Part shown: piece by piece, positions 23,518 to 55,346 of the stretch | How positions within the stretch are numbered: the stretch's first letter is position 1 | Layout of the letters: every line of letters begins with the position of its first letter | NCBI GenBank assembly: GCA_043718945.1 | Contig: JAYSUV010000042.1 | Location: 1-55,627, forward strand | From: Planctomycetota bacterium | GTDB lineage: Bacteria > Planctomycetota > Planctomycetia > Planctomycetales > Planctomycetaceae | Direction: 5' to 3' | DNA length: 55,627 nucleotides | Position numbers and translations under genes: made by a program | Notes under the pieces: generated by a model | What the model was told of the DNA's origin: nothing | The model's database searches: none | The model's input: only the letters and a program-made list of their open reading frames with translations

Positions 23518-25074
23518 TTACCGCTGCCCCAATGCTTTCTGCCGGGCGAGATGATAATCCGCCAGATCATCGTCTCCAAGTTGTGCATACGAGATTGCCA
23601 ACCCGTGGTGAATCTGGGCATTCAGGGGCAATTCTCGCAAGGCGAACTCCAATTCACGGACCGCCTCGGCCCACCGTTCCCGGCCGACCAGGATCTGACC
23701 TCGTGTTTCATGATAGAGCGGAGGTTTCGCATTCAGACGAATCGCCTCGTCCACACACTGCTCAGCCTCTTCCCAATCCGGAGCAGGCATCGATGACAGC
23801 GTATGAGCCAAATTGTTCCACGCGATGTCCGCTCTCGGTTCTCGCTTGACCGACTGACGCAGCAAGGTGACCGCTCGCTCCCACTGTTGATCTTGGGCCG
23901 CAGCTGTCCCCACCAGGTAGTAGGCGGCAGCGGGGGCCTGTCCATTGTCTAAATAGGGTTGAAGTTCCAGCTGAGCGGAGTGACGTAACTCAGGGGGGGC
24001 ATGAGCCGCGATATTCGCGAGGACGACCAGCGCCTCGCGGGCGTTGGGGTCGTAATTCCGGCTCAGGGTAACAAGCTCCCAGCGTCGCTTCCAAGACTCC
24101 GTGGCCTGCGGGAGATCGTTCGTCATGCGGAGATAGATCGAAGCCAATCGCTTTCGCAGATCGGGTGAATCCTGAGCCTCAATGGCCTGCGTCAGGGCCT
24201 TCGCGGCCTCCATTAAGAGTCCCTGCATCATGAGCGATTCAGACCAGTTCAAGTAGCACGTCACCCGTTGCTTCTCATGCTGAGGATTGGACGATGCTCC
24301 GCTGCGGGGCGCGGACTCCAGCTGGGAGAGGGACTCCGAGAAATAAGCGGCAGCTTGACCAGCGTATTCCGCTTTCTGGGTGTGTTGCTCGAGTTTTTCG
24401 TAGACGCGAGCTAGATCAAGCCGCCGGGCTGGCATCACGAGGACCACGGCCTCCAGGTGCTTTGCCGCAGACTGGAAATCTCCCCGCTGAAGGAACAGCT
24501 GGGCGAGCAGTTCGTGGCACAGGATGTAGCCGGGGTCGATCTCCAGTGCCTGCTGAAAGCGATCTATCGCACGGTCTGCAGCTTCCCCGTGAGGGCCGGG
24601 AGAGATTGACATTTCTCGGAGAGCCAACTGCGTGTGGGCCAGTGCGTCTTGAGACTGGTCGGAGTTGGTCAGCATCTCCCGGTAGCAAGCTGTGGCTAGA
24701 TCGAATTGGTCGCGCCGCATGGCGATCGCTGACCGCAGAGAGAGTATGGGATCGGTCGGTAATTGCAGGCTCTGGAGTCGCGTCTGGTAGAAAGCGGCCT
24801 GATCGACTTGCCCTTGCTTCAGCAGTTGCTGAGCTGTGACGACGTAGCGCTGAATGGTGGCCGAGTCCAGCTCCTGCCGAGAACGCAGCGTGACCGAGAA
24901 GACCAAAAATGCGACAGCAAGAGCCGGAACGCCCAGCAGCAAGTTCCGCATCCGGCGTGTCTGAACCCACCCGGCCACGAACCCCACACACGACCACAAA
25001 ACGTAGTACGGAAAAGTCCGCACACGCCAGAGGAAGTTCGGTGATGCGGTCCAAGGTTTCTCCCAAGAGATCAT
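23518..25074 (-). CDS. Membrane-anchored TPR-repeat protein, translationally coupled to the exosortase gene
   Basis: ATGA overlap with the exosortase stop (25071-25074). There are N-terminal TM segments. Multiple degenerate 34-aa TPR units follow (e.g. WNNLAHTLSS..., LYHETRGQILVGRERWAEAVRELEFALRELPLNAQIHHGLAISYAQLGDDDLADYHLARQ). Confidence 0.75.
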   Translation of the reverse strand: MISWEKPWTASPNFLWRVRTFPYYVLWSCVGFVAGWVQTRRMRNLLLGVPALAVAFLVFSVTLRSRQELDSATIQRYVVTAQQLLKQGQVDQAAFYQTRLQSLQLPTDPILSLRSAIAMRRDQFDLATACYREMLTNSDQSQDALAHTQLALREMSISPGPHGEAADRAIDRFQQALEIDPGYILCHELLAQLFLQRGDFQSAAKHLEAVVLVMPARRLDLARVYEKLEQHTQKAEYAGQAAAYFSESLSQLESAPRSGASSNPQHEKQRVTCYLNWSESLMMQGLLMEAAKALTQAIEAQDSPDLRKRLASIYLRMTNDLPQATESWKRRWELVTLSRNYDPNAREALVVLANIAAHAPPELRHSAQLELQPYLDNGQAPAAAYYLVGTAAAQDQQWERAVTLLRQSVKREPRADIAWNNLAHTLSSMPAPDWEEAEQCVDEAIRLNAKPPLYHETRGQILVGRERWAEAVRELEFALRELPLNAQIHHGLAISYAQLGDDDLADYHLARQKALGQR

Positions 25075-43900: not shown

Positions 43901-45432
43901 GCCACGCTCGTGTTGATACTCGATGAGATAGAACCGGGCAGCGTGCCGACCGTCATAAGATCACTGGCCTGCGCGTTCGTGAGTATGATCGTGGCTCCGG
44001 TCAGAGTGCTACTGGAAGCATGTTCCAGAAGAATGTCCATGTCACTGATCGAGACTGCCGATCCTCCCTCTATGAATGATGTCAGGTAGTTGCTCCCCGT
44101 CGCTCCACTGCTGTTGTTGCTATCCAAATCAATCTGTGGAATGCCCACGACCACGGGACTGGAAAACACAAAGTCTCCGTCGCCATCATGGTCGTAGAAT
44201 CGCTGACCCGCAGACGCATTGAAGCAGAAGTAGGTGGCCTCCCACGAGCTGCGATTCCGCCAGCTATACTGAACCCAGGCCTCTTGTTGAGTGGCATTTT
44301 GGCCGAGCGTCCCATCCGCTCGAACCTGATTGCCATCATTACTGATCACCAGATTCGTGGGATTATTGCGGGTATATGCATAGAGGCCAGTCAGGTCAGC
44401 AGCTGCCCCTTCAATGGATGCCCCGACACCGAGGTTGCCGTCCAAGTCGCGAATCTTGAAGTTCGGGTCACCGATTGCGACCACGGTCTGGCCTGTCCCT
44501 GACTGAAAGACCTCCCAGCGAATTGTCGCTGTTCCCGCATTATCAATTGTTACCCGTGGATCGTCGGAACCGCCGCCGGTCGTAAACCCGACGATAGAGG
44601 CTCCTGTTCTGGAGATGACGGTGGCACGCAAATCGATCGGGACTCCGCCGACGGTTCCCGCGTTGGTCCAGAGTCCAACGGTTCCAACGCCACCTGTTCC
44701 GGTGACCGTCGGCAGACCTGACGCGGAAATCAGCAAGGGAGCCAGTACACCCTGCCACGCAGGTGCCTCTAAGGTGGCCGTCTCCTGTGTCCCGTGCTGG
44801 AACTCGAGATCCCAGTCACCGCCCAGGCTGACGTTCCCTGTCATGTCATCGCTGGCAGACACATCGGCACCCGTCAGGACGCTGATCTCCTCCAGCATTT
44901 GCACACCTGTAGCTGTCTGGGCAACATCGCAGCCGTAGAACAGCAAGTCCGCGTCCGCACTCAGGTGGGTGCCCCAGCGAGCGAACTCTCCGGCATGTTG
45001 CGGCAAGTTCTCGGGGGCCAGCCAGGTGGAACCCAGTTCGATCTGGCCCGGTTGTCCGTGCGTGAAAATGTGGACGGCGTCGTACGGAGTGGTCGACCCC
45101 GCGAGCAGTTGCGTGATCTGCTCGACCCCATCCTGGTCGGCGTTCAGATATCGCACCTCGAAGTCTCGCCCTGTCTGGCCTGAGAGCAGTTCTTGGAGAA
45201 GCTGCTCCGCATTGGCGACGCGCGGGTCCATGATGATCAGTTCGTGCGTTCCCTGTGTGGGAGCTTGATCGATGGCGGCTTGCGTCTGCTCCGGCACCGG
45301 CTGGGCCTCGACTTGTGCTTCTTCAGCCAGTGCCGCTGCATCGGGCACGGCGTCAAACAGGAGGCGGTCTTCGAGCTGTTCCATCAGCAGGGTGCGGGGA
45401 CGGAGCCAGTTGGTGGAGGTGCGACGGAACAT
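28996..45432 (-). CDS. Giant (5,478 aa) surface/adhesin-like repeat protein: N-terminal DUF4347-like domain, cadherin-like/VCBS region, then dozens of bacterial Ig-like (BapA/SiiE-type) modules
   Basis: Single uninterrupted 16,437-nt ORF. ATG 45432 is preceded by GGAG (45441-45444) with an 8-nt spacer. N-terminus MFRRTSTNWLRPRTLLMEQLEDRLLFDAVPD has no hydrophobic signal peptide. Residues ~62-211 match the DUF4347 pattern (HELIIMDP...HIFTHGQPGQIELG...LLFYGCDVA...GDWDLEF). VNDAP/VDDAP-delimited cadherin-like units and a VCBS-like unit (GTYGTLTVNANGSYSYTV...TETFVYTVTD) follow. From about 39400 downward there are repeated ~100-aa modules (ISDDTGSSSTDxxTSDNTLxxSGTAEPNS...DGVSxGT...GxWxxD; PNLTDPTDSGSSNTDDLTNxTTPTFxAPAGTGEPGSTVTLY...). 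Confidence 0.9.
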   Translation of the reverse strand: MFRRTSTNWLRPRTLLMEQLEDRLLFDAVPDAAALAEEAQVEAQPVPEQTQAAIDQAPTQGTHELIIMDPRVANAEQLLQELLSGQTGRDFEVRYLNADQDGVEQITQLLAGSTTPYDAVHIFTHGQPGQIELGSTWLAPENLPQHAGEFARWGTHLSADADLLFYGCDVAQTATGVQMLEEISVLTGADVSASDDMTGNVSLGGDWDLEFQHGTQETATLEAPAWQGVLAPLLISASGLPTVTGTGGVGTVGLWTNAGTVGGVPIDLRATVISRTGASIVGFTTGGGSDDPRVTIDNAGTATIRWEVFQSGTGQTVVAIGDPNFKIRDLDGNLGVGASIEGAAADLTGLYAYTRNNPTNLVISNDGNQVRADGTLGQNATQQEAWVQYSWRNRSSWEATYFCFNASAGQRFYDHDGDGDFVFSSPVVVGIPQIDLDSNNSSGATGSNYLTSFIEGGSAVSISDMDILLEHASSSTLTGATIILTNAQASDLMTVGTLPGSISSSINTSVAGQVTVTLSGTATLAEYQTAIQAVSFSNNSDTPSTTPRNVTVRVTDGVNPSDIAVATIGVVAVDDAPTLNLDPSNASGGANDGNYVATYTENAAAVALMATNSTANDFGEADLNRLTVSVTGVLEAAAERIHVGSSVFTLNSDSTLTTVAVSGVAYNVTVAYTAATSTFEITRTGGGVISVSEMQTIMRSVAYSHTSENPTAGVRTVSFVSTDSAALTSVSVTTSLTVVPVNDAPIVDLNSAASVGDVTRDNAVTFTEGDATVNLTSAIAAVSDLGENDITLMNIVATGLADGALESLTIGGQSFALNTDATLSATLGGTTFAISYVAATGTFSIQNNAGAAIPMSAADLTTLVRSITYLNTDEAPSGSARSFSFTSTDSEGTVSNAAVANVTIIAVNDAPNATDNLVSISENAVVPVSGNVLTDNTGAGVDSDPENDVLNVVNVNATAVAGATTVTGTYGTLTVNANGSYSYTVNGSDPTVNALTTGQTVTETFVYTVTDLTVGPLTDTANLTITINGVNDVPVLNLDPNNITGGANDGNYVTTCSESTGPVSIDASPLANSSTIIDPDNTTLASLNLTVSGLIDGNREKLIIGGTTISLVSSSTQQVTVNGEQFDVDVTLSGTTATVIVTPGGAPLSAALTDFRDVLRSIEYQNTSVEATHGDRVISMTATDAGGATGTAVTSTIHVLNQFTAPSSVTGPEDQVGGISLGIVNTLATSPFTINLSGAPTGTTLSVGINLGGGLWSVPAASVGTLKVISPTNYSGNYNVSVANGLELETVAVIVTPVADTPILSTVDVVDYEDTVGVSLAGHISAVLADLDGSETLTLQITTVPPGFTLTDGTNTFTSPASGAVVTITSWNLGMLFLIPPPNQSGEVTLSLLATATESDGSTATNNDVITITINPVNDPPVFTDLVPSVTFTETLVNAGPQLIDIDVTVSDIDSPNFNGGSLVVGYSVGGGTEDSLSIRNQGTGSGQIGFNGTTVTFGGVVIGTISGGQNGTAGTPLVIDFNASATPAAVEALIQNLTYVNSSDTPAAARTIQVTIDDGGTENATASALTVINVTPVNDVPVLDMSTAIAGTGYVNTFTENGPAVSVTASTVLMSDPDDPNIESALVVLTNAQTGDLLTFASSLPGGITAIIDTAVPGIVTITLSGTATQADYQNALAALRFENTSDTPSTTPRVIDITVNDGSANSNTAISTISVVSTNDTPAIADLNGVTFTESAVNSGPQLVDISVTVTDTDSMNLNGGSLTISYDAMDGGSTDDQLSFMDFGTGPGLIGFSGTTITYGGVVIGTVRTGADGSNGSDLIIDFTANATPGAVDALLQSLTYANADDTPAATRTITAVVTDGDGGTSNTASSQITITAENDPPVITAVSTPTYTQDRPEVVVASTVTVSDVDDTFIESATVTISSIDRTNDLLTLTPAAQAAATLAGITVTAYNPATGELTLSGSASPADYQAVLAGIQFSSSSGTPTDRVISYVVNDGSDSSNVANVTVDYIADTIAPTKPVITAISDDTGPSSTDGFTSDNTLTISGTAEPNSTLELFLDGVSLGTVVVDGAGNWTFDHTGTTLADGPYVLTATSTDAADNTSVLSDPFAIVVDTNTGSGTLIQGPIVSAISIDSGSSGTDGVTSDNTLVISGTAQPNSSVEVFIDGVSIGTVMVNGAGLWSIDHTSATLPDETYDLTAVQTDPAGNMATSPVYEAVVDTDNPEPPVVTAISDDTGSSSTDAFTSDNTLIFSGNAEPNSEVEVFLDGVSIGTVMADGAGLWSLDYTATVLADGPYVLTATSTDDAGNVSDLSATYAFTVDTNTGTGPIAALPLISSMSDDTGVSATDEYTSDNTLEFSGTGQPNSVLELFLDGTSIGTTNIDAAGNWTFDYTSVVLPDGDYILTGVQTDLAGNVTSPSPDFAFTVDTDAVAGPHTTVPTVTAISIDSGSSSTDEYTNDNTLIFSGTADPNASIEVYLDGVSIGTTTTDSIGNWRFDNTTTVLLDGDYEVSVEQTDQAGNLSASTDLPFTIDTNAVDGPHAMVTPAVVSLATNITLPTLTGEYDSDDAVALSVTVNGVIYVLGTDPQLTTVGDTWTLNLSVGTVAGLPEGTYSVTTTATDLAGNSLTDVTSAELLVDLTAPAAPTIDGPIEGDDIINAAEDDDAAISGTGEPNTTLTLTVDDGNPLTPPVTIDVLVDAMGNWTVPVAGLNLSGLKDGPLTVTAFTTDASGNVSPTATAAPVHDTVNEPVVITGPVEGDDIVNAAEAGSVLVTGTAEPNSTVTVSISDGANPPVEVVVTTDPSGNWTIVGQEVDISGLNEGPLTITATAVDEAGNPSTSDTHDIVLDITAPSINPLDPDALTIDTPIEGDNTANAAEDNDVLLTGTAEPNSTVTLTVRDPSGHGVTVTVMTDPDGLWTITGDELDLSAFDQGTLDVSATATDLAGNTSAAVATTFEHDSLVGVTITGPVMGDDRIRDAEDNAVLVIGTTDPNASVEVTLTDATGKFVTVTVIADGAGLWSIAGQEVDLSTFDQGTITITAIATDTAGNVSTTATHPIDHDSIDPAPPTVNTLVTNDQTPTLTGTWDEASASELEVTVNGVTYVLGTNPQLTTDGSENWTLNLNSQPLLPGAVYDVSVVSNDEAGNTSNDSTASELTVDVAPPVRPTVNVLITNDVTPTITGTWAAGDATILQVVVNGFTYVRDLNNPAASDPQLVANSDGTWSLNLDGEPALNPGRYNVSASNWDPANNRSNDKTTNEVTIDVTPPLAAVNPPNLTTPTDTGISNTDDLTGNNTPTFSGKGGEPGSTATIYAQPVDENGDPTGPPVTIGTATTGPTGLYSVLTNPGNPLADGPYLITVTFTDRAGNESDPSPSLAIVVDTTAPVELLITDAATSTIEEDHVVNLAESPDVTIAGSGAEPSSTVSVVITDSLSNILGPIAATLNADGTWTIPDQDFSGLADGPITVVATETDNAGNVGLGVSTTLTLDRTPPLAPPVVDMTDETDSAGASVADDLTYDQTPTFTAPPGTGVAGDVVSIYVDGELVATGFVALDGSYEVTPTNPIAEGPHDVTASFTDPAGNEGPQSTILAIVIDITEPSLLAIDAPVMEDDLINAAEAPATVVSGSGVEPTSTVEVTFTDSLGASVGPVMATVNPDGTWTISPTDLTSLADGPITVTVIEEDAAGNLSEPVTSNITLDTTPPEAALIAPNLTDPTDTGVSNTDDNTANIAPTFDAPAGTGEPGSTVTLYVTPLDVNGDPIGSPLVVGTAIVNEDGSYTISVGPISPLGDGPYDVTVTFTDIAGNEGPQSPALAIIIDTTEPAAALIAPNLTDATDSGTSPTDDLTNVTTPTFDAPVETGEPGSTVTLYVTPLDADGEPTGPAVAVGTAIVNEDGSYTVRVDAMNPLVDGHYDVTVTFTDLAGNEGPQSPALAIVVDTTAPTTDPGAVDPLTIAPPIEGDDIVNAVEVDDVLVTGTAEPNSVVEVTLDDGNPLTDPVVATVTTDAAGNWTLLGSEVDLSTLDDGPLNVTATATDAAGNTSEPVTAEITKDTVAPAAALIAPNLTDPTDSGSSNTDDLTNVTTPTFDAPAGTGEPGSTVTLYVTPLDENGDPAGPPMAVGTAAVNEDGSYTVSVDPMNPLADGPYDITVTFTDPAGNEGAQSLALEIVVDTMAPAAAPVAPNLTDPTDTGSSPIDDLTNDTTPTFDAPAGTGEPGSTVTLYLDGERVGTATVNEDGSYEVSVDPDSSLADGPHDVTVTFTDPAGNESEPSPPLAIIVDTTDPNNLLITNADTSTIEGDHVVNLVESPDVTIAGSGAEPTSTVSVVITDSLGTELGPIAATVNEDGTWTIPDQDFSSLVDGPITVIATETDAAGNVGPGVSTTLILDTTSPVAPLLVDMTDGTDSGASPTDDLTNDQTPTFTAPAGTGVPGDLVTIYVDGELVATGTVAEDGSYEVTPTTPIAEGPHNVTASFTDPAGNEGPQSLVLSIEIDITPPSELAINPNPMVDGLVNADEAPNTVVSGSGVEPTSTVTVTFTDSEGHTVGPVMATVNDDGTWTSSPTDLTSLVDGSITITAVESDDAGNVGEPVVSELTLDTTPPTAAATPPNLVDSSDSGSSNTDDVTSDTTPTFNAPAGTGEPGSTVTLYIDGEPVGMALVNEDGSYTVDVPAVSPLTDGPHAVTVTFTDPAGNEGPPSPVLSIVVDTTAPIAAVIAPDLTNESDSGSYSTDDLTNDTTPTFSAPPGTGEPGSTVTLYVDGEPVGTALVNADGSYTVSLPPGSPLTDGPHEVAVSFTDPAGNEGPLSPALDFIVDSTAPDGLAIDGPVTSDNVVNLTETPLVALSGTGAEPGSIVSVTLTDSDGNNLGPIAANVNPDGTWTVPATDISSLADGPITVTATETDEAGNVGEPVTSAFDKDTTPPAALTPPNLVDESDSGSASEDDLTNDTTPTFNGPTGSGEPGSTVTLYVDGEPVGTAIVNEDGSYEVTVDPGSPLVDGPHDLTVTFTDTAGNEGPQSPTLVITLDTTAPDGLVISGPVTPDDVVNAAEQMGVVISGIGVEPTSTVTVTLTDSAGNEVGPVTAFVNEDGTWSIPPTDISSLIDGPITVTATETDKAGNAGDPVSSSFDKDTTPPQALTPPDLVDGSDTGDTPTDNLTNDNTPTFSGPAGAGEPGSTVTLYVDGEPVGTAIVNEDGSYSVDVPVSSPLSDGEHQVTVTFTDVAGNEGPHSPPLAITIDTTEPISPTTTLTLPDKLTGTGEPGTKITMLDKNGDPGVDTNGNPIVTMVGVDGKWTLTGMFPQLGFQDTVTVISTDGAGNSSSTSVKIAFFGFDSFNNLSQTPSRFMSEAWSDSEILLSRLLLDLGSSPILSGSARPGTQLIARLYSVDGSILAEQSVIADAAGNWMLQLPGMLPSDAPRIVIEHISTSQVPLGSSGFRLSDQTYTQLQFGTTYGYQSTADGVLGATAGEALRVDHAENLNPLNWL
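44800..45249 (-). other. DUF4347-like N-terminal domain of the giant protein (residues ~62-211)
   Basis: Block HELIIMDPRV...DAVHIFTHGQPGQIELG...ADLLFYGCDVAQTATG...ADVSASDDMTGNVSLGGDWDLEF. Coordinates were derived by counting residues from ATG 45432. Domain name is recalled from memory of similar giant proteins. Confidence 0.5.
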
Positions 45433-46191
45433 GCGGGAATCTCCGGGAAGAGCGTTGAGAGATGAGGGTTGAGCGTTGAAGGTGGGAGTTGAGCGAATAT
45501 GCTCAACCCGCGTGGCAGCATGTTTCTATTCAGCGGCGTATTGAGAGAACGAACGTCACACGACGTTGAGAGAGATCCACGTCGAGCGTCCCAGTGTGTG
45601 ACAATGAAGTAGGAGTGACGCGGTTCCAGCCCAGTTGAGTCGTCAGGGCTGGAGCGCGGGTCTGCACTTCTTGGCACATGTCAAACTTAGGACCAGGTCG
45701 AGCCGATCGGGTCATGTTTCATTCCGGCAGCATGAGGTGCAGTGCGATTACGCAAGTCTGAGCGGACCGCTCTGGACCTCGTCAGAACTTGGTGCCAAAC
45801 GCCAACAATCAGCAACCTCGGGTTTCAGCGCAGAGCTGCTCCGGTCAGGTCGCCCAATGACTATTTCCCCATCGGCAGAGCTTGCCGAGAAGGTGGATTC
45901 GGACAGGTCGACTGGCTTGTGAATCCGTCGAACAGAGTCCCGATTCGCAATCCTGCGGTGTTTCACTGCAAGCCCCTGGAACTGAGGCAGCGCTGCTTGC
46001 CAAGTCCCGGAATGTCGGCTGGGACTGCCGATCTCAACAGTGTCCTGACCGCGAGTTCACTGGGGCCGCGATCCCCACGCTTCAGTCATGCCGGGTCTCC
46101 ACACCATGAGACGCCACGTCTCAGTACGGCATCTTTGAATGCTCTCCGCAGTCCGGTTCGTCAGTCCGCCTTTTGATCCACGGGGGAAGTC

Positions 46192-47487
46192 ATGGTTCTG
46201 TTTCAGTGCGACTCGCAGAGGTCGCGTTCACTCGGTGTCTGGGGTTGGGTGATGAGCCTGGCCGGGGCAGCTGTAGTCTGCGGTACGACTACTGAATGTC
46301 ATGCGGACGATCTCCAGGTTGTCACCGTGGCCAGTCAACAGAGCGTGGCATCCACCACAGCTAGCCGGGTCCGCGAGGGTGCCGATCAAGCCGCCGACCA
46401 AGTCATAGACATCGCCGATGCCCCCTGGTGGGATGCCGACGTTCACGAGTCAATGCAGAGCCAGGCCAGCTCGCTGCCGCTCACGCTGCAACAGACCATC
46501 TGGTATGCATTGAATTACTCCGCACAGATCCAAGTGTTTAGTGACCTGCCGCTCATTCGCGAGCAGGCGATCACCGAGGCCGATGCCTATTTCGATTGGA
46601 ACGCCTTCTTTGATACCCGCTGGGACGACCTCAATACTCCCGTCGGGAGTTCGCTCACTGTCGGTGGAGCGGGCACACGTTACCTCAACGATCAGTTCAG
46701 CTTCTCAGCGGGGGTACGACGCAAGAATGAGATCGGTGGCAAGTTCGAGATCGCACAGCAATTCGGCACCCAGCGCACGAACTCGACCTTCTTTGTCCCG
46801 AACAACCAGGGGACTTCTCGCCTCTCATTGAGTTACACGCAACCGCTGTTGCGAGGTCGCGGGGAAGAATACAACCGCAGTTTGTTCGTGTTGGCCAACA
46901 TCGATACACAGGCCGCTCAAAGTGAGTTCCACCGCCAGTTGCAGGGACATCTCGTTGAAGTGACACGGGCCTTCTGGGGAGTGTACCTGGAGCGGGCTTC
47001 ACTGATTCAGAAGTATCGTCTGTACGAAGCGAGTGCCAAAATCCTCAAGGACCTCGAAGCGCGGGCGGACATCGACGCGAACCAGAGCGTGATCCTGCGG
47101 GCGCGGGCGGCTGTGGCGGGTCGCCGTGCCGAACTGGTTCGGGCCCGGACAGCTGTCAAGAACGCCGAGACCCGGCTACGCGGTTTAGTCAATGCCCCAG
47201 AGCTGGGAGATGGCCAGACAACTGAACTGATTCCCGGAGACACTCCACTGCGGGCCATCTACCAAGCGGATGCGGCCTCCAATATGTCGATGGCGTTACA
47301 AAGTCGCCCGGAGATCAACCAAGCGATGAAAGACATGCAGTCCGCCAGCGTCCGGCTGAACATGTCCAAGCACGAAATGCTGCCGACGCTGAACCTAATC
47401 GCGGAGACCTCGGTGGCCGGATTGCGAGGCAGCTATGACGTGGGCAATGCCTACAACGATCAGTTCTCGGTTGGTGCGCCGAGCTAA
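46192..47487 (+). CDS. TolC-family outer membrane efflux protein, N-terminal 431-codon part ending at an in-frame TAA (split gene or pseudogene)
   Basis: ATG 46192 is preceded by GGGGGAAG. It has a signal-like N-terminus. Typical OEP features are present: LTLQQTIWYALNYSAQI, coiled-coil repeats, QPLLRGRG. The ORF stops at TAA 47485-47487 in the middle of the second repeat. The same frame continues as 47497-48009. Confidence 0.75.
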   Translation: MVLFQCDSQRSRSLGVWGWVMSLAGAAVVCGTTTECHADDLQVVTVASQQSVASTTASRVREGADQAADQVIDIADAPWWDADVHESMQSQASSLPLTLQQTIWYALNYSAQIQVFSDLPLIREQAITEADAYFDWNAFFDTRWDDLNTPVGSSLTVGGAGTRYLNDQFSFSAGVRRKNEIGGKFEIAQQFGTQRTNSTFFVPNNQGTSRLSLSYTQPLLRGRGEEYNRSLFVLANIDTQAAQSEFHRQLQGHLVEVTRAFWGVYLERASLIQKYRLYEASAKILKDLEARADIDANQSVILRARAAVAGRRAELVRARTAVKNAETRLRGLVNAPELGDGQTTELIPGDTPLRAIYQADAASNMSMALQSRPEINQAMKDMQSASVRLNMSKHEMLPTLNLIAETSVAGLRGSYDVGNAYNDQFSVGAPS

Positions 47488-47496
47488 TCGGTCGGG

Positions 47497-48009
47497 GTGC
47501 AGTTTGAAGTTCCCATCGGTCGTAGACTGTCTCAAGCACGCCTGACCCGGCGGGAGATTGAACTTCGTCAAGTGCGCAATCAGTTCCGCTCTGTGACCGA
47601 AACGATCAAAGTCGAAGTCGAAGTTTCCACTCGCGAAGTTGAGACAGCCTTCAAAGAGATGCTCGCCAAGCAACAGCAAATTGCCGCCACGACCGAAGAC
47701 GCCAAGTCGATCGCGCATCGCTGGGAGATGTTGCCCGGTGCCGACGGCTCAGCAGCTGTGGTTCTCGATCAACTGCTCCGCGCTCAGGAGCGGCAGACAG
47801 CTGCGGAGAATGACTTCTTATTAGCGGAGCTGACTTACAACCTGGCTCTGACGAACATGAAAAAGAGTACCGGGGAGTTGCTTCAGTCGGAGATGATTAC
47901 CGAGGGGCGGTACTCCGAGAACGGAGTGCCCCGGACCGTGCTGGATAAGCCAATCATGTCAACAGAGGTGCAGCCGGAGCCAGCTCCAGGCTCCGCGCTT
48001 CCGCAGTAG
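47497..48009 (+). CDS. TolC-family outer membrane efflux protein, C-terminal part (same frame as 46192-47487)
   Basis: SVGVQFEVPIGRRLSQARLTRREIELRQV... is the canonical TolC beta-strand/helix continuation (xVGxxxxxPxxxR). It starts 9 nt after the TAA, in the same frame. It has no independent signal peptide, so it is unlikely to be a stand-alone gene. Confidence 0.7.
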   Translation: MQFEVPIGRRLSQARLTRREIELRQVRNQFRSVTETIKVEVEVSTREVETAFKEMLAKQQQIAATTEDAKSIAHRWEMLPGADGSAAVVLDQLLRAQERQTAAENDFLLAELTYNLALTNMKKSTGELLQSEMITEGRYSENGVPRTVLDKPIMSTEVQPEPAPGSALPQ

Positions 48010-48246
48010 GCCCCATCGCTAGGAGCCGACATCCTGCCATCAGTATGCGGTCGAGGGGGCCGCTGACGCCCTGTCGAGAAGAATCGGAATCGGGAGTGGA
48101 TCACCGGCCCGCGAGCCACCCACCGGTCTCGTTCTCTCGACAGGGCGATGTCATTGAGTCGGGGGGGTGGAGTCTGGAGCAGGAAGCTTCTGGCCATCCA
48201 CCATCCGCTCCCTCTCTTTCATTCATCACTCACCACTCGCCTCCCT

Positions 48247-50124
48247 ATGCGTCTCCTCACACGCACTCCCGATCTCGTCGAACGAGTGCGAATGCTCGGG
48301 AAGCCTCTGCCTACCAACCCACAGGGATTCCTGTCCCAAGCGATGATCGCACTGCGGGAGCGGGCGAGGACCATGACGACGACAACCGAGAGCGACCTGC
48401 TCGCCCGCTCCTTTTCTCTCGGCACCGAAGCCATCCGCCGTGTCTTTGGGTTTGTGTTGCACGATGTCCAGATTCGCGGAGCCGCAGCCGTGGCGCGCGG
48501 CGATGTGGTGCAGATGCAGACTGGCGAAGGCAAGACGATGGTCGCCGCATTGGCCGCGATCAATCGTGCCTTGTCAGGTCGAGGAGTGCATGTGATCACG
48601 ACCAACAGCTATTTAGCTGAGAGAGATTGCGAAGAGCTGCGACCAGTGTTTGACATGCTCGGGATCTCGCTGGGAGTGTTAAGGCAGGAGTCGACGCTCG
48701 CTGAGACTCGGCGAGCCTACGCCGCCGAAGTGACTTATGGTCCGGGGTATCAGTTCGGGTTTGACTACCTGAAGGACCAGTTGGCTTTGAGGACCGTTGT
48801 GGAGGTTCCTCTTGGTTCAAAACTCAGAGCAGGGCTGAATGGCCAACGAGTCGGTGAGACACCACTGCGGCAGCGACCTCGCGACTTCGCGATCATCGAC
48901 GAGATCGACAGCGTGCTGTTGGATGAAGCGTCGACTCCACTGATCCTCAGTGGATCGGCCAGCGGGATCGATGATCCAGCACCGTATGAAATTGCCCGCG
49001 ACTGCGTGGCTCGCTTCGCGGCGGAGACCGACTTCACCATCGAGTCGCCATCGCAGCGCATCTTGCTTTCGGTCGACGCGGTCACTCGCTCGCAACAGGC
49101 TCTGACAGCTCGGCCAAAAGTGCGACTGGCCCGCCCGTGGGCCACCTATCTGCGAAATGCAATCCAGGCACAGTACAAGCTCCATCGCGACGAACACTAC
49201 GCCGTGATCGAGGATGAGGTCCGCATCGTCGATCAGAACACCGGTCGTATTTTTGCCGACCGTTCTTGGCGTGACGGACTGCATCAAGCGGTCCAGGCCA
49301 AAGAGCAGGCTTCGATCACGCCGAGTGAGACATCACTCGCTCGCATCACCCGGCAGAGATACTTCCAGCAGTACAACCAGCTGGCCGGGCTGACCGGGAC
49401 GGCTCTGGGTGCCGAGCCGGAGTTCGAGAGTGTCTACGCCTTGCGAGTCGTTCCGATCCCGACAGCGCGCCCCTGCTTGCGGCGTCTGGAACGGCAACGG
49501 GCGTTTGGTACTCTCGACGCTAAACGAAGTGCCATCGCGAGCGACACCGCGAATCGCTTTCACCGGGGGCAGCCCGTGCTGATTGGAACGCGGACGATCG
49601 AAGAGAGCCGACGCCTTTCGGATCAGTTCACGGTACTCCAACTTCCACACATCGTCCTCAACGGACTGCAAGATGCGGACGAAGCATCCATCATCTCACA
49701 AGCAGGTCAAACCGGGGCGATCACGATCGCGACGAACATGGCCGGGCGCGGGACCGACATCAAGTTGAGTCCGGCGGCGAGAGACGCTGGCGGGCTGCAT
49801 GTCGTCGTCTCGGAGCCGCACATCTCGCAACGGATCGATCGCCAGTTGATCGGGCGTTGTTCTCGACAAGGCGACCCTGGATCGGCCCAGGTCTTCGTCT
49901 GTGCCGAGGATCAACTGTTGACGCTGCATGCTCCCAAGCTCGCGAAACGGCTGCGCCGATTGGCCGGGGCGGACGGCGAGTGCAGCGTCGATGTCGCCGG
50001 TGATGTTCTCAGAACTCAACAGCGCATTGAACTGGAACACTCTCAGCAGCGTGCGAAGCTGTTGAAGCAAGATGAGTGGTTGGATGGAGTTCGCAAAGTC
50101 CTCTCAGGATGGGAAACCGAATGA
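48247..50124 (+). CDS. SecA-like ATPase paralog: NBD1, preprotein cross-linking domain and NBD2 present; most of the helical scaffold, wing and C-terminal tail absent
   Basis: MQTGEGKTM (Walker A), DEIDSVLLDEASTPLILSG, RSWRDGLHQAVQAKE...ITRQRYFQQYNQLAGLTGTA, TNMAGRGTDIKL and GGLHVVVSEPHISQRIDRQLIGRCSRQGDPG match the SecA motor motifs in order. The protein ends 80 residues after GDPG. Start taken at ATG 48247; the ORF is open from 48148. Confidence 0.85.
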   Translation: MRLLTRTPDLVERVRMLGKPLPTNPQGFLSQAMIALRERARTMTTTTESDLLARSFSLGTEAIRRVFGFVLHDVQIRGAAAVARGDVVQMQTGEGKTMVAALAAINRALSGRGVHVITTNSYLAERDCEELRPVFDMLGISLGVLRQESTLAETRRAYAAEVTYGPGYQFGFDYLKDQLALRTVVEVPLGSKLRAGLNGQRVGETPLRQRPRDFAIIDEIDSVLLDEASTPLILSGSASGIDDPAPYEIARDCVARFAAETDFTIESPSQRILLSVDAVTRSQQALTARPKVRLARPWATYLRNAIQAQYKLHRDEHYAVIEDEVRIVDQNTGRIFADRSWRDGLHQAVQAKEQASITPSETSLARITRQRYFQQYNQLAGLTGTALGAEPEFESVYALRVVPIPTARPCLRRLERQRAFGTLDAKRSAIASDTANRFHRGQPVLIGTRTIEESRRLSDQFTVLQLPHIVLNGLQDADEASIISQAGQTGAITIATNMAGRGTDIKLSPAARDAGGLHVVVSEPHISQRIDRQLIGRCSRQGDPGSAQVFVCAEDQLLTLHAPKLAKRLRRLAGADGECSVDVAGDVLRTQQRIELEHSQQRAKLLKQDEWLDGVRKVLSGWETE

Positions 50125-51011
50125 ACACGTTCGCACGGACGATCATGCTGACGGTATGGACAGCCAGCGTGCTGCTAAGCGGGGCCAAGCTGCGGGCCGA
50201 GGTCACGACCAGCTTTACCGAGCCGGATGAGACAATCGAAGTCGCTTGCGCTGAACCGGGTGTTGTCGCGCAGGTACTCGTGAAGCAGGGGCAATTCGTC
50301 AAGGCGGGGACCATCCTGGCCGTCCTCGACAACGCGGTCCTCGAAGCGACACTCCGTGCGGCAGAGACGAAGGCGCGATCGACGGCCCGGATCGATCTGG
50401 CTCGGGTGGAGGTCGAACTCAAGCAGAGACAGAAGGCCAAACTCTCGCTCGTCCTCGCCGACGGGCACGCCTCGGCCAATGAGATCGAGAAAGCCGAAGC
50501 CGAACTGGCCGCCAGCCAGGCCCAGCTGCGCATCTCCGAAGAGGAAGCGATCCTGAGCAAGATCGATGTGGAACAGATCAAGGCTCAAATTGAACGCCGC
50601 ACCATTCGCAGCCCGGTCGACGGCGTGGCGACTCGTGTTCGTCGACGACCTGGCGAGTTCCTCTCCAGCAGCGAGCCAGTGATCGCGACGGTGGTCCGTC
50701 TCGATCAGCTGCGGGTGAAGTTCTACGTCTCAACGGAGCTGGCCGAACGACTGCAATCGAATGGGGAATGCGCTGTCTCGATACGTGGCCAGCGAATCGC
50801 CGGGCGGATCGACTTCCTCTCACCGGTGACCGATGCCGACAGCGGGACGGTGCGCATGGAAGTGCTGCTCGACAACCGGTCGCACAAGCTTCGTAGCGGG
50901 ATCTCCAGTCAGCTGGAGTTGGTGCCACCGACAACGACTCCGGTCCGGGGGAGTGAGCCGGTGGTGGTCAAGCCGCGTGAGTCGGGGTTGGTCGCCCCCG
51001 TACTGCGGTAA
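50121..51011 (+). CDS. HlyD/membrane-fusion-family periplasmic adaptor with signal peptide
   Basis: ATG 50121 overlaps the SecA-like stop (ATGA, 50121-50124). Signal peptide is MNTFARTIMLTVWTASVLLSGAKLRA. The lipoyl-like block GVVAQVLVKQGQFVKAGTILAVLDN, a long coiled coil, then IRSPVDGVATRV are typical MFP architecture. Confidence 0.8.
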   Translation: MNTFARTIMLTVWTASVLLSGAKLRAEVTTSFTEPDETIEVACAEPGVVAQVLVKQGQFVKAGTILAVLDNAVLEATLRAAETKARSTARIDLARVEVELKQRQKAKLSLVLADGHASANEIEKAEAELAASQAQLRISEEEAILSKIDVEQIKAQIERRTIRSPVDGVATRVRRRPGEFLSSSEPVIATVVRLDQLRVKFYVSTELAERLQSNGECAVSIRGQRIAGRIDFLSPVTDADSGTVRMEVLLDNRSHKLRSGISSQLELVPPTTTPVRGSEPVVVKPRESGLVAPVLR

Positions 51012-51032
51012 CTGCATTCACCAGAACTCGCT

Positions 51033-51068
51033 CAGACTTCCGAAGTCTCGGAAGACTTCGGAAGTCTG
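51033..51068 (+). other. Strong intra-operon hairpin (15-bp perfect stem, 6-nt loop)
   Basis: CAGACTTCCGAAGTC (51033-51047) and GACTTCGGAAGTCTG (51054-51068) are exact reverse complements. It lies 22 nt after the adaptor stop and has no U-tract. A second 8-bp hairpin CCACCTTCtggcGAAGGTGG lies at 51099-51118. Confidence 0.75.
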
Positions 51069-51138
51069 CTGGCACCTGTGAATACTAAAACAATCCGCCC
51101 ACCTTCTGGCGAAGGTGGCTACGTTCAGGAACATCAGC

Positions 51139-52989
51139 ATGGCCGTCATGAAGACTCAACGCATTGATGCCCCTTCGCCGTTACCGATCACAGTCGCCTC
51201 GAAGGCCGGGCCGGTGCATGCTCGGCTGTATCACATCGCCTCGCAGATTCTTGACCCCTTGGTGGCTCGGTCAGAACTGAGGAAGGTCGCCATCGCCGAG
51301 ACGGGAGCGATCGCTGCGGTCCATGTGTCTCGCACGTCTGATGGTCAGTGGACATTCGACCCGAGCCAGATCACGGGGGACTTGCCTCGCGATGAGGGGA
51401 TGCGCGAGCAGCTGAATGAACTCTGCACAGCTGCGACTGAGCGTAGCAAGCCACAAATCCAGCAGTCGAAGACTGCGGCTTCACTGTTCCTGATTGGGGC
51501 TCCGATTGTGCTCCCACGCACAGCGGGAGAGGTGCTGTTCATTGTCGTCCCGGCCCAGGCGGGTGCGGTGCAGGCGGCGACGATGATTGTCGACTTGGTA
51601 GCGGCGTACCAGCGCACGTGGGCACTCACGCACATCGCGGCGCAGATGGACCGACAGCTTGATTCGATTGCCACGCTGTGCGAGCTGACCTCGAAAGTCA
51701 CCGGGGCCGAGAGCCTCGATGCGGCCACCACGTTACTCGTGAGTGAAGTGCAGCGCCGGTTCGGATGTTTGCGAGTGGCAGTCGGGATCAAGCAGGGGAG
51801 ATCGCTACGGTTAGCGGCGGTGTCGGGGACATCGCAGGCCGATCCGACCTCGACACCAGTCCACCGACTGAGACAGGCCATGCAAGAGACGCTGTTCCGA
51901 GATGAACCCGCCGTGTGGCCGGTGAATTCCTCGGAGGCGATGCTGCTGGCACATCAGCAACTTGCACAGCACTGCTCGTTCCCGGCGGTCATCTCTGCGC
52001 CGCTGAAGCTCGCGGATGGGACCGTGGTTGGAGTATGGCTCTGGGCGGGAGCGAAGGAGAAGCTGCACGGTGAGGCGACACGGCGATTCATGGCAGCGGC
52101 CTCTCCGCATGTAGCGATTGCCTTACAGGCGTGTCGCCGTGCCGAGCCGGGGATCGCTTCGCGAGTGGCTTCGGCCTTGGGGCGGAGTCTGCGTAGCCGC
52201 GCGGGGATGCTGGTCGTGCTGGCGTTGATGCTCTTCGGAGGCGCGATGTTCGTTCCGGTTCCAAGTCATGTTCGCTGCGATTGCCGCGTGGCTCCGGTGG
52301 CCCGCCGTTATGCCGTCGCACCGTTCGATGGACAGATCGAGACAGTGCTCGCCAAGCGAGGAGACACCGTCACCGAGGGGCAGATCCTCGCTCGACTCGA
52401 CGGTCGACAGGTCCGCTGGGAGCTGGCTGGAGTCGAAGCTGAACGGCATCAAGCGGCTCGCAAGCACGAAGTCGAACTCGTGGGCCAGGATGTGCCCGAG
52501 GCGATCCTCGCGAGCTTGGAACTCGACCGACTCAACGTCAAAGACTCACAGCTGACCCACCGCGAATCCCAACTCGAAGTCGCCAGCCCGGTGACTGGGA
52601 TCGTGCTCGAGGGATTGCGAGATCGGGTCGAAGGGACACCGGTCAAGACGGGCGACGTACTGTTCGAGGTCGCTCCGCTCGACCGAGTGCGGGTCGAGAT
52701 CGAGGTGCCCGCCAGCGAAGTCTCTACCGTGGAAGTCGGCCAGTCGGTGACTCTCTGGCTCGAGGGCCTGGGGACCGACGCGATCTCGGGAACGATTCAA
52801 TCGCTTGCTCCCGAGTCCGAGGTCAGCGAAGGCGAAAACGTGTTCATCGCCGAGCTGGAGTTTGAGAATACCCAAGGCCGGATGCGCCCCGGCATGCGCG
52901 GGCGAACCCGGATTGACTCGCCGAGGAGGCCACTGGGACGGGTACTGTTCCAGCCATTGTGGGAGTGGTGGTTGTCTCGCTGGGGATGA
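51139..52989 (+). CDS. HlyD-family adaptor with a large cytoplasmic GAF-like N-terminal region and one TM helix
   Basis: The C-terminal half (VAPFDGQIETVLAKRGDTVTEGQILARLDG..., coiled coil, ASPVTGIVLEGL, GDVLFEVAP) is MFP-like. TM helix is AGMLVVLALMLFGGAMFVPV. The preceding ~350 residues are soluble and include a GAF-like stretch (LCELTSKVTGAESLDAATTLLVSEVQRRFGCLRVAVGI...LRLAAVSG...). Start is ATG 51139 or 51148; the track ORF begins at GTG 51115. Confidence 0.7.
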   Translation: MAVMKTQRIDAPSPLPITVASKAGPVHARLYHIASQILDPLVARSELRKVAIAETGAIAAVHVSRTSDGQWTFDPSQITGDLPRDEGMREQLNELCTAATERSKPQIQQSKTAASLFLIGAPIVLPRTAGEVLFIVVPAQAGAVQAATMIVDLVAAYQRTWALTHIAAQMDRQLDSIATLCELTSKVTGAESLDAATTLLVSEVQRRFGCLRVAVGIKQGRSLRLAAVSGTSQADPTSTPVHRLRQAMQETLFRDEPAVWPVNSSEAMLLAHQQLAQHCSFPAVISAPLKLADGTVVGVWLWAGAKEKLHGEATRRFMAAASPHVAIALQACRRAEPGIASRVASALGRSLRSRAGMLVVLALMLFGGAMFVPVPSHVRCDCRVAPVARRYAVAPFDGQIETVLAKRGDTVTEGQILARLDGRQVRWELAGVEAERHQAARKHEVELVGQDVPEAILASLELDRLNVKDSQLTHRESQLEVASPVTGIVLEGLRDRVEGTPVKTGDVLFEVAPLDRVRVEIEVPASEVSTVEVGQSVTLWLEGLGTDAISGTIQSLAPESEVSEGENVFIAELEFENTQGRMRPGMRGRTRIDSPRRPLGRVLFQPLWEWWLSRWG

Positions 52990-53085
52990 TGGGAAGGAGG
53001 GTTAATGGTTTAAGGTTGATGGTTTATCGACAGAGCAAGCACACCACTTCGGCCCCTCCCCTCCCTCCGTACCCTTCCGTCTCTC

Positions 53086-53160
53086 CCTCAACCCTCAACC
53101 ATTAACCATTAACCATTAACCATTAACCATTAACCATCAACCATCAACCATCAACCATCC
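53086..53160 (+). repeat. Heptanucleotide tandem array (CCTCAAC x2, CATTAAC x5, CATCAAC x3, partial CATCC) immediately 5' of the M50-HlyD gene
   Basis: Ten contiguous 7-nt units counted base by base from 53086 to 53155, plus a partial unit to 53160. ATG follows at 53169. The upstream segment 53002-53026 (TTAATGGTTTAAGGTTGATGGTTTA) is largely complementary to the array. Confidence 0.9.
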
Positions 53161-53168
53161 CCCCCTCC

Positions 53169-55346
53169 ATGCACACACCCGACCATGCCACGTTCGAGAT
53201 TGCCGGAGCCAAGCCGCGGCTGCGGGATGGGTTGGTGTTCACCTTGCGCGAGACCGGCGGGGAGCCGGGGGCGATCATTGAGGACGAGCTGCGCGGCCGG
53301 TTCTATCGCGTGGGGATGGCAGAGTATACGTTCCTCTCGCTCCTTGATGGCCGGACGACGATCGGCGAGGCACTGGGGGCGACTGCACTCCGGCTCAAGG
53401 ACCGAGCCCTGACCGAAGACGAGGCCGCATCATTATGCCGCTGGTTGATCGACAGCGGCTTGGCTCTCATCGGCCATGAGTCAGTGACCGCAATGGAACA
53501 AGAGCGTGCCAAGCGGTCCCAGTTGGCCCTCACACGTTGGATGAATCCGCTGATGCTGCGGATGCCGTTGTTTAGTCCCGAGCGAATGTTGCGGGCGATG
53601 TTGCCGCTGTTTGATTGGCTGATTAGCGGAACAGGAGCAATGCTGTGGTGTCTGCTGTGCGGATATGCCCTAGTCCGCTTTATTCCAGATGCGGGCGACC
53701 TGTGGCAGGGAGTGCGACCGCTACTGGATGCCGATAATGGCTGGAAGCTCGCGGCGACGTGGCTTCTGATGAAACTCGTGCATGAGAGTGCCCACGGGTT
53801 GACGTGCCAGAAGTTCGGGGGAGTCGTGCGCGAGTGCGGCGTCAACTGGCTGCTGTTTGTGCCGCTCCCCTATGTGGATGTCACCAGTTGCTGGCGGCTG
53901 GCGTCGACCTCGCAGCGGTTGCTGGTCTCCGCTGCGGGGATACTGGCCGAGATGGCACTGGCAGCTGTGGCGGCGATTGTCTGGACGCTGACTGACAATC
54001 CGATTGTGCGGCAGCATGCGACCAACGTCATCATCTCGGCCACCATAACGACGCTCCTATTCAATGCGAACCCTCTGATGAGGAGCGACGGGTACTATCT
54101 GTTAAGCGACCTGCTCGACTGTCCGAACCTATCGATGCAGGGGCAGACGTTCGTCCAGAACCTGTGGCGGATGGTGTTCTTGGGATTGAGGCCGCGACCG
54201 ATTGATGTCTCTCTGGGACGGCTCTTCGTCATTGCGGTCTATGGGGTACTTTCGTCGGTGTGGTCGGTACTGGTCGGATTGGGAATGATTATCGGGGCAG
54301 CGAATCTGTGGCCGGGCATCGGGTTATTGCTCGCTGTCGTACTCGTGACGTTGTGGTATCTCTGGCCAGCAGTGCGGGCGCTGAAGTTCTTTGTACTGGG
54401 CAGTGAAACGGAGCAGCCACGGCGCTTACGCTGCCTGGTGGTGACCGCGGCGTGCCTCGCCGCGTTGATTGTGTCTGCCAAGCGATTGCCCGCCCCGAGC
54501 GTCATCAGTGCTCCGGCAGTGGTGCAAACTCGTCCACTGTCGATCGTGCATAGTCTGGCCACCGGTCGTGTGGTCCGCGTCACCGTGGAGACGGGAGACC
54601 TGGTGTCGTCTGGCGATCTACTCTTGCAGCTGGAGAACCCCGATCTGGTTGTCGACCTGCAACAGCTACGATTCGATGTCACAACCTCCACGCAGCGCGA
54701 GATCCGCCAACTCAACCAGGGAGAAGTCGCCGCTGCGGAAGTCGAGCGTTCGAACCGCACAGCAATGACTCGGCGCGAGAAGGAGCTGGTGCGGATGATC
54801 GAGGGGCTGACGGTCAAAGCTCCGATGGCCGGGCGCGTCGTGACACGCGACCTAGGTCAACTGCTCGGGCGCGATCTACCGCAAGGGACCGAACTGCTGA
54901 CGATCGCATCAACAGCTCGACCCCAGCTGATCGCGTTAGTCCCGCAGTCGGAAGCCGAATCGCTTCGCGGTCGAGAAGGCCAAGCGGTTCGAGGTTGGTT
55001 GTGGGGGCATGAGAGGTGGCTCGGCGGTGAGATTGAACATGTCGAACCGCGTGCGACCCAAGTGGCCGCTCATCCCGCGCTGACCGCCGAAGCGGGTGGT
55101 CCACTCGCAGTCGTGGCCCGCGATCCTCGAGACGAGGCCGGAACGGAGCTGGCCTCCTCGCAGTGGTTGATGACCGAGCCGCAGCTGGAAGTGGTGATCA
55201 ATCTGGACGCGACGAGCGAGCGGTTGGCTCTCGGCGAGACGGGGATTGTGCGTCTGCCGATCCGCAGTGGATCGTTGTGGGGGTATGTCAGGCAGAAGAT
55301 CGAGAACTGGTGGTCAGTCCGCTGGACGACCACGCACGGGGTGTAA
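53169..55346 (+). CDS. Tripartite fusion: PqqD/RRE-like N-terminal domain, polytopic M50 (site-2 protease-type) zinc metalloprotease, and C-terminal HlyD-type adaptor
   Basis: HESAH (HExxH, 53781-53795) lies inside a TM segment. NPLMRSDG (54069-54092) matches the second M50 motif (NxxPxxxxDG). N-terminal IIEDELRGRFYRVGMAEYTFLSLLDGRTTIGEAL...EDEAASLCRWLIDSGLAL resembles PqqD-type peptide-binding winged helices. The C-terminus (GRVVRVTVETGDLVSSGDLLLQLENPDL, coiled coil, VKAPMAGRVV) is MFP-like. Confidence 0.75.
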   Translation: MHTPDHATFEIAGAKPRLRDGLVFTLRETGGEPGAIIEDELRGRFYRVGMAEYTFLSLLDGRTTIGEALGATALRLKDRALTEDEAASLCRWLIDSGLALIGHESVTAMEQERAKRSQLALTRWMNPLMLRMPLFSPERMLRAMLPLFDWLISGTGAMLWCLLCGYALVRFIPDAGDLWQGVRPLLDADNGWKLAATWLLMKLVHESAHGLTCQKFGGVVRECGVNWLLFVPLPYVDVTSCWRLASTSQRLLVSAAGILAEMALAAVAAIVWTLTDNPIVRQHATNVIISATITTLLFNANPLMRSDGYYLLSDLLDCPNLSMQGQTFVQNLWRMVFLGLRPRPIDVSLGRLFVIAVYGVLSSVWSVLVGLGMIIGAANLWPGIGLLLAVVLVTLWYLWPAVRALKFFVLGSETEQPRRLRCLVVTAACLAALIVSAKRLPAPSVISAPAVVQTRPLSIVHSLATGRVVRVTVETGDLVSSGDLLLQLENPDLVVDLQQLRFDVTTSTQREIRQLNQGEVAAAEVERSNRTAMTRREKELVRMIEGLTVKAPMAGRVVTRDLGQLLGRDLPQGTELLTIASTARPQLIALVPQSEAESLRGREGQAVRGWLWGHERWLGGEIEHVEPRATQVAAHPALTAEAGGPLAVVARDPRDEAGTELASSQWLMTEPQLEVVINLDATSERLALGETGIVRLPIRSGSLWGYVRQKIENWWSVRWTTTHGV

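Follow-up and report, generated by a model that had tools for sequence, protein, structure and literature searches.

The 55,627-nt stretch JAYSUV010000042.1 of Planctomycetota bacterium assembly GCA_043718945.1 (hereafter the window, i.e., the whole stretch of DNA that was analysed) carries at positions 46192–55346 a block of five co-directional open reading frames (ORFs) on the + strand, which encode a TolC/OEP-family outer-membrane factor, a SecA-like ATPase and three HlyD-type adaptors, two of them fused to further modules. Divergently from this export block, across an intergenic region of 759 nt (45433–46191), lies the gene of a giant repeat protein (28996–45432, −), the candidate cargo of the encoded machinery. 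This layout had been proposed earlier in a reading made from the sequence alone (the sequence-only reading), and the ORF listing returned the same coordinates for the five genes and for the divergent giant. The block is a member of the class of secondary SecA_DEAD loci described and interpreted by Kamneva, Poudel and Ward (PLoS One 10:e0129066, PMC4452313; below, Kamneva et al., 2015) and is, therefore, no new kind of locus. Protein domains were assigned by profile searches against Pfam and NCBIfam. Promoters are presumably located in the 45433–46191 region; a scan of it for the sigma-70 consensus gave nothing above chance, so that no promoter was recognised, and the block itself, scanned for Rfam families, promoters and terminators, gave no signal exceeding chance either.

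The five genes of the export block

The sole nucleoside triphosphatase (NTPase) of the block is the SecA-like ATPase, a truncated SecA paralogue of 625 aa (48247–50124, +; the longest ORF has an alternative start at 48148). It matches SecA_DEAD (5e-80), SecA_PP_bind (1e-20) and P-loop_SecA (3e-45), and its motor motifs are kept, i.e., Walker A GEGKT (48523–48537), DEIDS (48898–48912), TGTA, GRGTD (49744–49758) and the arginine-rich motif. The first and second nucleotide-binding domains, the full preprotein cross-linking domain and the start of the scaffold helix are present. The sequence-only reading had been right about the motor motifs and the cross-linking domain, yet the C-terminal domains are absent: the alignment to B. 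subtilis SecA spans residues ~32 to ~610 of 841, and the protein thus has neither wing domain nor two-helix finger nor C-terminal tail, while the greater part of the helical scaffold is missing. The best NCBIfam match, TIGR00963, reached 535.8 bits against a cut-off of 800, and the protein stayed under the curated cut-off of all SecA and SecA2 models that it matched. Many paralogues of similar size (~620–650 aa), mostly from Planctomycetota, make up the family in which it falls. The large size of the family shows in 3562 representatives at the 50% identity level (E ≤ 1e-30). Since the protein is truncated, a housekeeping role appears unlikely.

The first of the adaptors is a short HlyD-type periplasmic protein with an N-terminal signal or anchor (50121–51011, +). 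It matches HlyD_3 (2e-18) and RND_mfp (3e-35), the latter with 121.6 bits, which exceeds the cut-off, and its ATG overlaps the TGA stop codon of the SecA-like gene in an ATGA at 50121–50124, exactly as noted before. The second adaptor (51139–52989, +) joins a GAF domain and a single transmembrane (TM) segment to a HlyD-type part (HlyD_D23, 5e-19); its GAF_3 match is barely over the cut-off (3.4e-6, 27.9 bits vs. 27), and one strong TM segment spans aa 356–374 (52204–52260). The profile searches support the earlier assignments of the SecA-like, HlyD and GAF–HlyD products. A helical-hairpin-like stretch was recognised in each of the three adaptors by eye only.

The third adaptor forms the C-terminal part (~aa 450–725; HlyD_3, 1.3e-11) of a fusion protein (53169–55346, +), in which it is preceded by a polytopic M50 metalloprotease and, at the N-terminus (~aa 16–100), by a domain resembling the recognition element (RRE) of enzymes that modify ribosomally synthesized and post-translationally modified peptides (RiPPs). 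Six hydrophobic segments are predicted in the fusion. The M50 motifs are HESAH (53781–53795) and NPLMRSDG (54069–54092). The Peptidase_M50 match (2.2e-5, 24.3 bits) is below the cut-off of 27.2, and the model of daptide-type HExxH intramembrane proteases, NF041824, was matched at 2.6e-41 with a score of 142 against a cut-off of 300. Because the motifs are kept yet the scores fall under the family cut-offs, the M50 part is best described, from its sequence, as a divergent member of the M50 family. Both motifs, HExxH and N.NPLM..DG, are conserved without exception in 14 homologues of 34–79% identity, and this invariance down to 34% identity suggests that the protease is probably active.

The N-terminal domain of the fusion was approached through a predicted structure. 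The AlphaFold2 (AF2) model of aa 1–130 has a mean predicted local distance difference test score (pLDDT) of 80.8, with values >90 over residues 20–100, and consists of three strands and, after them, three helices. Foldseek ranked highest two RiPP leader-recognition proteins in structures with bound leader peptides, TbiB1 (5V1V, 5V1U) and a B1 protein of lasso-peptide synthesis (6JX3), ahead of the RRE-containing enzymes TruD/LynD and CteB. The model points to a likely RRE fold, as used by RiPP enzymes for leader peptides. The sequence-only reading had called the product a PqqD-like, M50 and HlyD fusion; the M50 motifs and the HlyD_3 match bear out the last two parts, while the PqqD-like part finds support in the predicted structure and not in sequence.

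The gene that opens the block (46192–48009, +) encodes a TolC/OEP-family outer-membrane factor, both halves of which match Pfam OEP (3.7e-15 for the first half, 1.5e-6 for the second). Its family had been named correctly before; it is, however, not one intact ORF, since an in-frame TAA at 47485–47487, missed in that reading, divides it into 431 and 170 aa. The same codon is TAC (Tyr) in three independent assemblies of an 89–90% identical relative and in one 85% identical relative, and the TolC-like genes of those relatives are intact (592–594 aa). The gene in the window contains a single C-to-A change and no other lesion, and its amino-acid identity to the intact relatives is 85–90%. Either the gene was inactivated very recently, or the base is an error of sequencing or assembly. 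Programmed recoding at the stop was rejected because the change is a single C-to-A at a conserved Tyr codon, and no supporting feature was found.

The giant protein and its N-terminal leader motif

The divergent giant gene is a 16.4-kb ORF that encodes a repeat protein of 5478 aa. Its Pfam domains begin with DUF4347 (aa 65–220, 4.9e-48; 44773–45240, −), continue with Cadherin_4/Big_9 and end with Big_13/Big_6 repeats at the C-terminus. Neither a Sec-type hydrophobic signal nor a TM-like segment is found in aa 1–240, in agreement with the earlier statement that the giant lacks a signal peptide, and RTX GGxGxD motifs number 0 in 5478 aa. The protein may contain a cryptic C-terminal secretion signal.

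At aa 20–28 the giant carries the peptide LEDRLLFDA (45349–45375, −), a variant of the LEPR-XLL motif. The first ~30 residues of the giants are more conserved than the sequence downstream, and among orthologues of 37–57% identity L10, R13, L16, E18, Q19, E21–R23 and L25–V29 are invariant. The consensus across loci is L..E.LE[DE]R[VIL][LM][FLMY][DS]A.P, located 13–45 residues from a plausible start codon. Of the 30 neighbours that are large or contain DUF4347, 25 carry the motif in a strict form (L..E.LE[DEP]R.[LM][FLMY][DS]A), which was met in none of the 740 remaining genes of these loci. Scanning 1.44 Mb in six frames gave 33 strict matches, of which 30 lie at the N-termini of large neighbours and the other three are internal chance matches; small ORFs bearing the motif were found in none of the scanned loci. 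A second strict match in the window (VEGRYLLSA; 21032–21058, −) begins only after 118 residues of an ORF of 389 aa (20219–21388) for which Pfam gave nothing, and is probably due to chance.

The leader is not confined to proteins with DUF4347, as it is also present on large neighbours that lack this domain (loci L054 and L087). The large neighbour at L054 passes the NCBIfam LEPR-XLL model NF012209 (24.3 bits, cut-off 17), and hence the leader is, on sequence grounds, a variant of a motif that NCBIfam has already named. A literature search found no published function for the LEPR-XLL motif and no published link between it and a secretion machine. In a set of 120 DUF4347 homologues drawn from many phyla, the motif precedes the domain in 67, and the cyanobacterial members begin directly with the domain.

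As for DUF4347 itself, G126 and C168 are invariant in an alignment of 57 homologues, and H125 is kept in at least 90%. Its AF2 model has a caspase/legumain-like α/β fold with pLDDT >90 over aa 62–215. The best Foldseek match is 9QPE_G, i.e., Tce1 (E 2.6e-5), followed by legumain and caspases; Tce1 (PA0256) in 9QPE is a DUF4347 type VI effector, the structure of which was solved with Hcp3. Judging from the modelled fold, the domain may be a cysteine protease of the clan-CD type or a module that processes itself.

Some other genes of the window lie beyond the giant. A few kb past its 3′ end, an exosortase of the EpsH family (25071–26771) and a TPR protein occupy 23518–26771 (−); by eye, the C-terminus of the giant has no PEP-CTERM-like tail. 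Farther away lie the genes of a PSCyt2/PSD1 (DUF1549/DUF1553) protein (17733–19484, +) and a DUF1501 protein (21508–22866, +), a pair typical of Planctomycetota and thus in keeping with the inferred phylum.

Gene linkage across phyla and the missing pump

The distribution of the block was surveyed by scanning an alignment of the M50–HlyD fusion against one genome per GTDB species. At least 589 matches were obtained and 80 loci were kept; 34 of these, flanked by 7 kb or more on both sides, served as a flank-controlled subset. The 80 loci span Planctomycetota, Verrucomicrobiota, Gammaproteobacteria and others, and the adaptor trio is near-universal in them (short HlyD in 60/80, GAF–HlyD in 72/80, M50–HlyD in 80/80). 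Among the 34 full-flank loci the SecA-like gene and a DUF4347 giant are present in 17 each and the OEP gene in 20, and the SecA-like/HlyD/M50/TolC linkage to which the sequence-only reading had drawn attention is conserved across phyla. Sampling outward from the SecA-like protein met the full cluster at five of eight loci, and two of three DUF4347 proteins sampled from other lineages adjoin the system (one in a Hydrogenophilales metagenome-assembled genome, MAG, and one on a further long contig). Stieleria marina K23_9, whose SecA-like protein is 47% identical to that of the window, encodes on one strand the SecA-like protein, HlyD, GAF–HlyD, M50–HlyD, OEP and a DUF4347 protein of 4832 aa. The earlier guess that the giant is the cargo is strengthened because the giant recurs with the system across gene orders and phyla and carries a system-specific N-terminal motif. 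On this sequence evidence the giant is likely the cargo of the system.

Several loci differ in arrangement. In Stieleria maiorica and a related MAG (L002, L088) a lone SecA-like gene stands between adenylate kinase and a DNA_binding_1/methyltransferase pair, and at the same syntenic site of Stieleria neptunia (L090) the SecA-like gene is followed by the adaptor trio; the comparison points to recent gain or loss of the trio. Locus L010 has two SecA-like paralogues (4749–6866 and 12506–14563) on either side of the adaptor genes. The MAG nearest to the window's organism, which contributed locus L004, holds a second, divergent copy of the trio (L078), and this copy adjoins a protein of >3100 aa with the leader LEEIVLFNA, in which Ile replaces Arg.

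TolC-type channels with HlyD-type adaptors invite a search for a pump of the ATP-binding cassette (ABC), resistance-nodulation-division (RND) or major facilitator superfamily (MFS) type. No ABC, RND, MFS or SecY gene, and no second secA, lies within the 55.6-kb window. The sequence-only reading had stated that such a partner is missing from the block, and this holds: there is none in the window and none that recurs in the related loci. As to a pump gene directly beyond position 55627, none is found in locus L001, which is 80% identical: its M50 fusion is followed (L001:17089–21390) by genes for a histidine kinase, a 214-aa ORF product, an HTTM (vitamin-K-carboxylase-like) protein and a response regulator. 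The last 281 nt of the window contain no ORF matching these genes. ABC-like ORFs occur in just three of 83 related loci. When the 496 remaining neighbour genes were clustered, no family was present in more than six loci, the top recurring one consisting of histidine kinase/response regulator proteins, and neither an ABC, RND or MFS family nor any extra partner was recurrent.

A single locus, L019 of a Pirellulaceae MAG, has a half-size ABC exporter (ABC_membrane + ABC_tran; L019:5163–7052, +) directly 5′ of the adaptor trio, i.e., in the usual slot of the SecA-like gene. This arrangement fits interchangeable energisers, and the exporter may be a non-orthologous replacement of the energiser.

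The proposed export route and its relation to known systems

The locus class was described in a purely computational study, which defined 'secondary SecA_DEAD domain proteins' without the wing/scaffold domain and noted the absent ABC transporter (Kamneva et al., 2015). Its authors proposed that the SecA_DEAD protein was co-opted as the ATPase in place of the ABC component, and that the M50 membrane protein could form the inner-membrane pore; canonical SecA was present in the genomes studied (Kamneva et al., 2015). The same idea, a SecA-type motor replacing the ABC transporter with M50 as the membrane part, was put forward in the sequence-only reading; gene content, the missing pump and the linkage speak for it, but it is not new. 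Cargo, leader motif and RRE-like domain are not given by Kamneva et al. (2015), and the links to them are additions of the present analysis. Two published arrangements that came into view were set aside as different: in the giant genes of Omnitrophota, SecA domains are fused into the giant proteins themselves, and in Chlorochromatium a classical type I secretion system (T1SS) is present.

On the observed domain identities, SecA truncation, M50 motifs, predicted RRE fold, gene linkage, leader motif and lack of a pump partner we infer every step of transport, the threading of polypeptide by the SecA-like protein included. On balance, and by no wide measure, we favour the reading in which the block is a dedicated trans-envelope exporter of the divergently encoded giant, working in one step, guided by the leader and powered by the SecA-like protein. 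The conserved N-terminal peptide L..E.LEDRLLFDAVPD of the giant, which has no Sec signal, would be bound in the cytoplasm by the RRE-like domain. The truncated SecA paralogue would then hold the chain in its preprotein clamp and, with ATP, drive its feeding from N- to C-terminus. Since the SecA-like protein lacks the parts that insert into SecY, the chain would pass into an assembly in the inner membrane, composed of the polytopic M50 domain and the membrane anchors of the adaptors. The three HlyD-type adaptors would form a periplasmic duct to the TolC-like channel, the intact M50 site would cleave off the leader, and the GAF domain would gate or regulate the machine.

A broader claim is put forward tentatively, and with more doubt than confidence, i.e., that these loci represent a distinct and widespread one-step pathway of Gram-negative bacteria, with a short acidic LE[DEP]R-x-L-[FLM]-[DS]-A (LEPR-XLL-type) leader on giant surface proteins, an RRE reader that works on the principle of RiPP leader recognition, a SecA motor free of SecYEG and ABC, a heteromeric HlyD/TolC duct and cleavage by M50. 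If true, a SecA-type motor would operate independently of SecY, and a TolC duct would function with no pump of the ABC, RND or MFS type. The pathway would account for the export of some of the largest surface proteins in Planctomycetota, Verrucomicrobiota and various Proteobacteria, and it would give the LEPR-XLL motif a function and DUF4347 a context. A cargo, an N-terminal tag and a predicted tag-binding domain make the hypothesis of 2015 directly testable.

A number of observations weigh against the favoured reading. To our knowledge, M50 proteases do not act as protein-conducting channels. The RRE assignment is not reflected in sequence comparisons, as Pfam PqqD was matched by only one of 59 fusion N-terminal domains (E 0.08) and a profile search of this domain against PDB sequences gave no match; the Foldseek E-values are only 0.009–0.06, though the probability is ~1.0 and the target TM-score 0.67–0.72. 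The giant of the window gives no match to NF012209 at E ≤ 1. About half of the full-flank loci consist of the adaptor trio with no SecA-like gene, OEP gene or giant nearby, which indicates that the parts are separable, and the SecA-like gene may also occur alone, e.g., in Stieleria maiorica. The TolC-like gene is interrupted, so that either the system is inactive in this strain or the base is erroneous. Finally, a literature search found no experimental work on this system or on any other member of the locus class, the sole citation of PMC4452313 that was found being a later paper co-authored by Kamneva.

Could the giant cross the inner membrane by the general route instead? In such a two-step scheme the truncated SecA would target the giant to SecYEG in the manner of SecA2, HlyD and TolC would take it across the outer membrane and M50 would clip the leader. 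The clade was indeed placed beside actinobacterial SecA2 (Kamneva et al., 2015), SecA2 models are among the best NCBIfam matches and the locus has no evident gene for a protein-conducting channel. However, the SecA-like protein is devoid of the parts that contact SecY, namely the two-helix finger, the wing domain and most of the scaffold, the N-terminus of the cargo offers no hydrophobic signal to the lateral gate of SecY, and it is to adaptor genes, not to those of Sec components, that the SecA-like gene is tightly linked and translationally coupled, which makes the scheme unlikely.

Another improbable account assigns the adaptor, M50 and GAF module to a variant T1SS or efflux system energised by an ABC, RND or MFS pump encoded elsewhere, the SecA-like protein being a chaperone or unfoldase, or unrelated. 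It would explain why approximately half of the full-flank loci have no SecA-like neighbour and why L019 has its ABC exporter directly upstream of the adaptors; moreover, the partners of TolC are often unlinked in classical systems, as is generally known and as was also pointed out by Kamneva et al. (2015). Yet across the 83 loci no ABC, RND or MFS family recurs near the module, while the SecA-like gene is, with OEP, the most frequent extra neighbour and here overlaps the start codon of an adaptor. Components missing from a locus occur elsewhere in the same genomes (Kamneva et al., 2015).

Less probable still is that the block is no conduit of the giant at all, and that the RRE–M50 and GAF proteins serve regulated intramembrane proteolysis or RiPP-type maturation and export of small leader peptides, the giant being a neighbour for regulatory or unrelated reasons. 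Among named families the M50 part comes closest to RiPP proteases (the daptide and YydH/LiaK models), the RRE fold is typical of RiPP enzymes and the GAF domain suggests signalling. Against this, the six-frame scan gave no small ORF with the leader motif in any locus; the motif is carried by the giant neighbours themselves, with 30 of 33 matches at the N-termini of large proteins, and three adaptors together with an OEP protein argue for a wide trans-envelope duct. That the block in this genome is merely a decaying, non-functional remnant, as the nonsense codon in the TolC-like gene might suggest, is very improbable, given one C-to-A change in a gene otherwise 85–90% identical to intact relatives, intact ORFs for the other block genes and for the 16.4-kb giant, and the equal possibility of a sequencing error or of another TolC paralogue.

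The block can be compared with several known systems. Like SecA and the accessory SecA2, its ATPase combines a preprotein cross-linking domain with a DEAD-like motor in which every nucleotide-binding motif is kept; unlike them, the protein of the block ends early in the scaffold helix and is linked to adaptors, not to SecY2/Asp genes. Proteins of the LEPR-XLL type (NF012209) likewise begin very large repetitive sequences with an N-terminal LE-P/D/E-R-x-L-L/F-S/D-A, although the variant of the window, LEDRLLFDA, falls under the threshold of the model. The leader machinery of RiPPs (RRE/PqqD-like domains; daptide M50, NF041824) resembles the fusion protein in the predicted β3–α3 RRE fold, in a related HExxH intramembrane metalloprotease and in the short, conserved peptide with which the presumed substrate is marked near its N-terminus; here, however, the presumed substrate has ~5000 aa, the protease is fused to a HlyD adaptor and the scores remain below the family cut-offs.

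Classical T1SSs (HlyB–HlyD–TolC, and LapBCE for giant adhesins) differ from the block in several respects: the block has no ABC transporter and its only NTPase is SecA-like, it has three different adaptors, two of which are fused to cytoplasmic or membrane modules, and the candidate signal is N-terminal rather than C-terminal, with no RTX repeats. Common to both are a HlyD-type adaptor with a TolC-family channel, and a very large, repeat-rich, adhesin-like substrate that has no Sec signal and is encoded beside the machine. The locus of the window departs from the Kamneva-type locus in the nonsense codon of its OEP gene and in the added giant neighbour with its LE[DEP]R leader and DUF4347. In all else that was compared the two agree: four core proteins of identical domain make-up, an OEP gene next to them (in the Kamneva-type class this is sometimes the case), a SecA paralogue without wing/scaffold, no ABC transporter, the same range of phyla and the same functional proposal.

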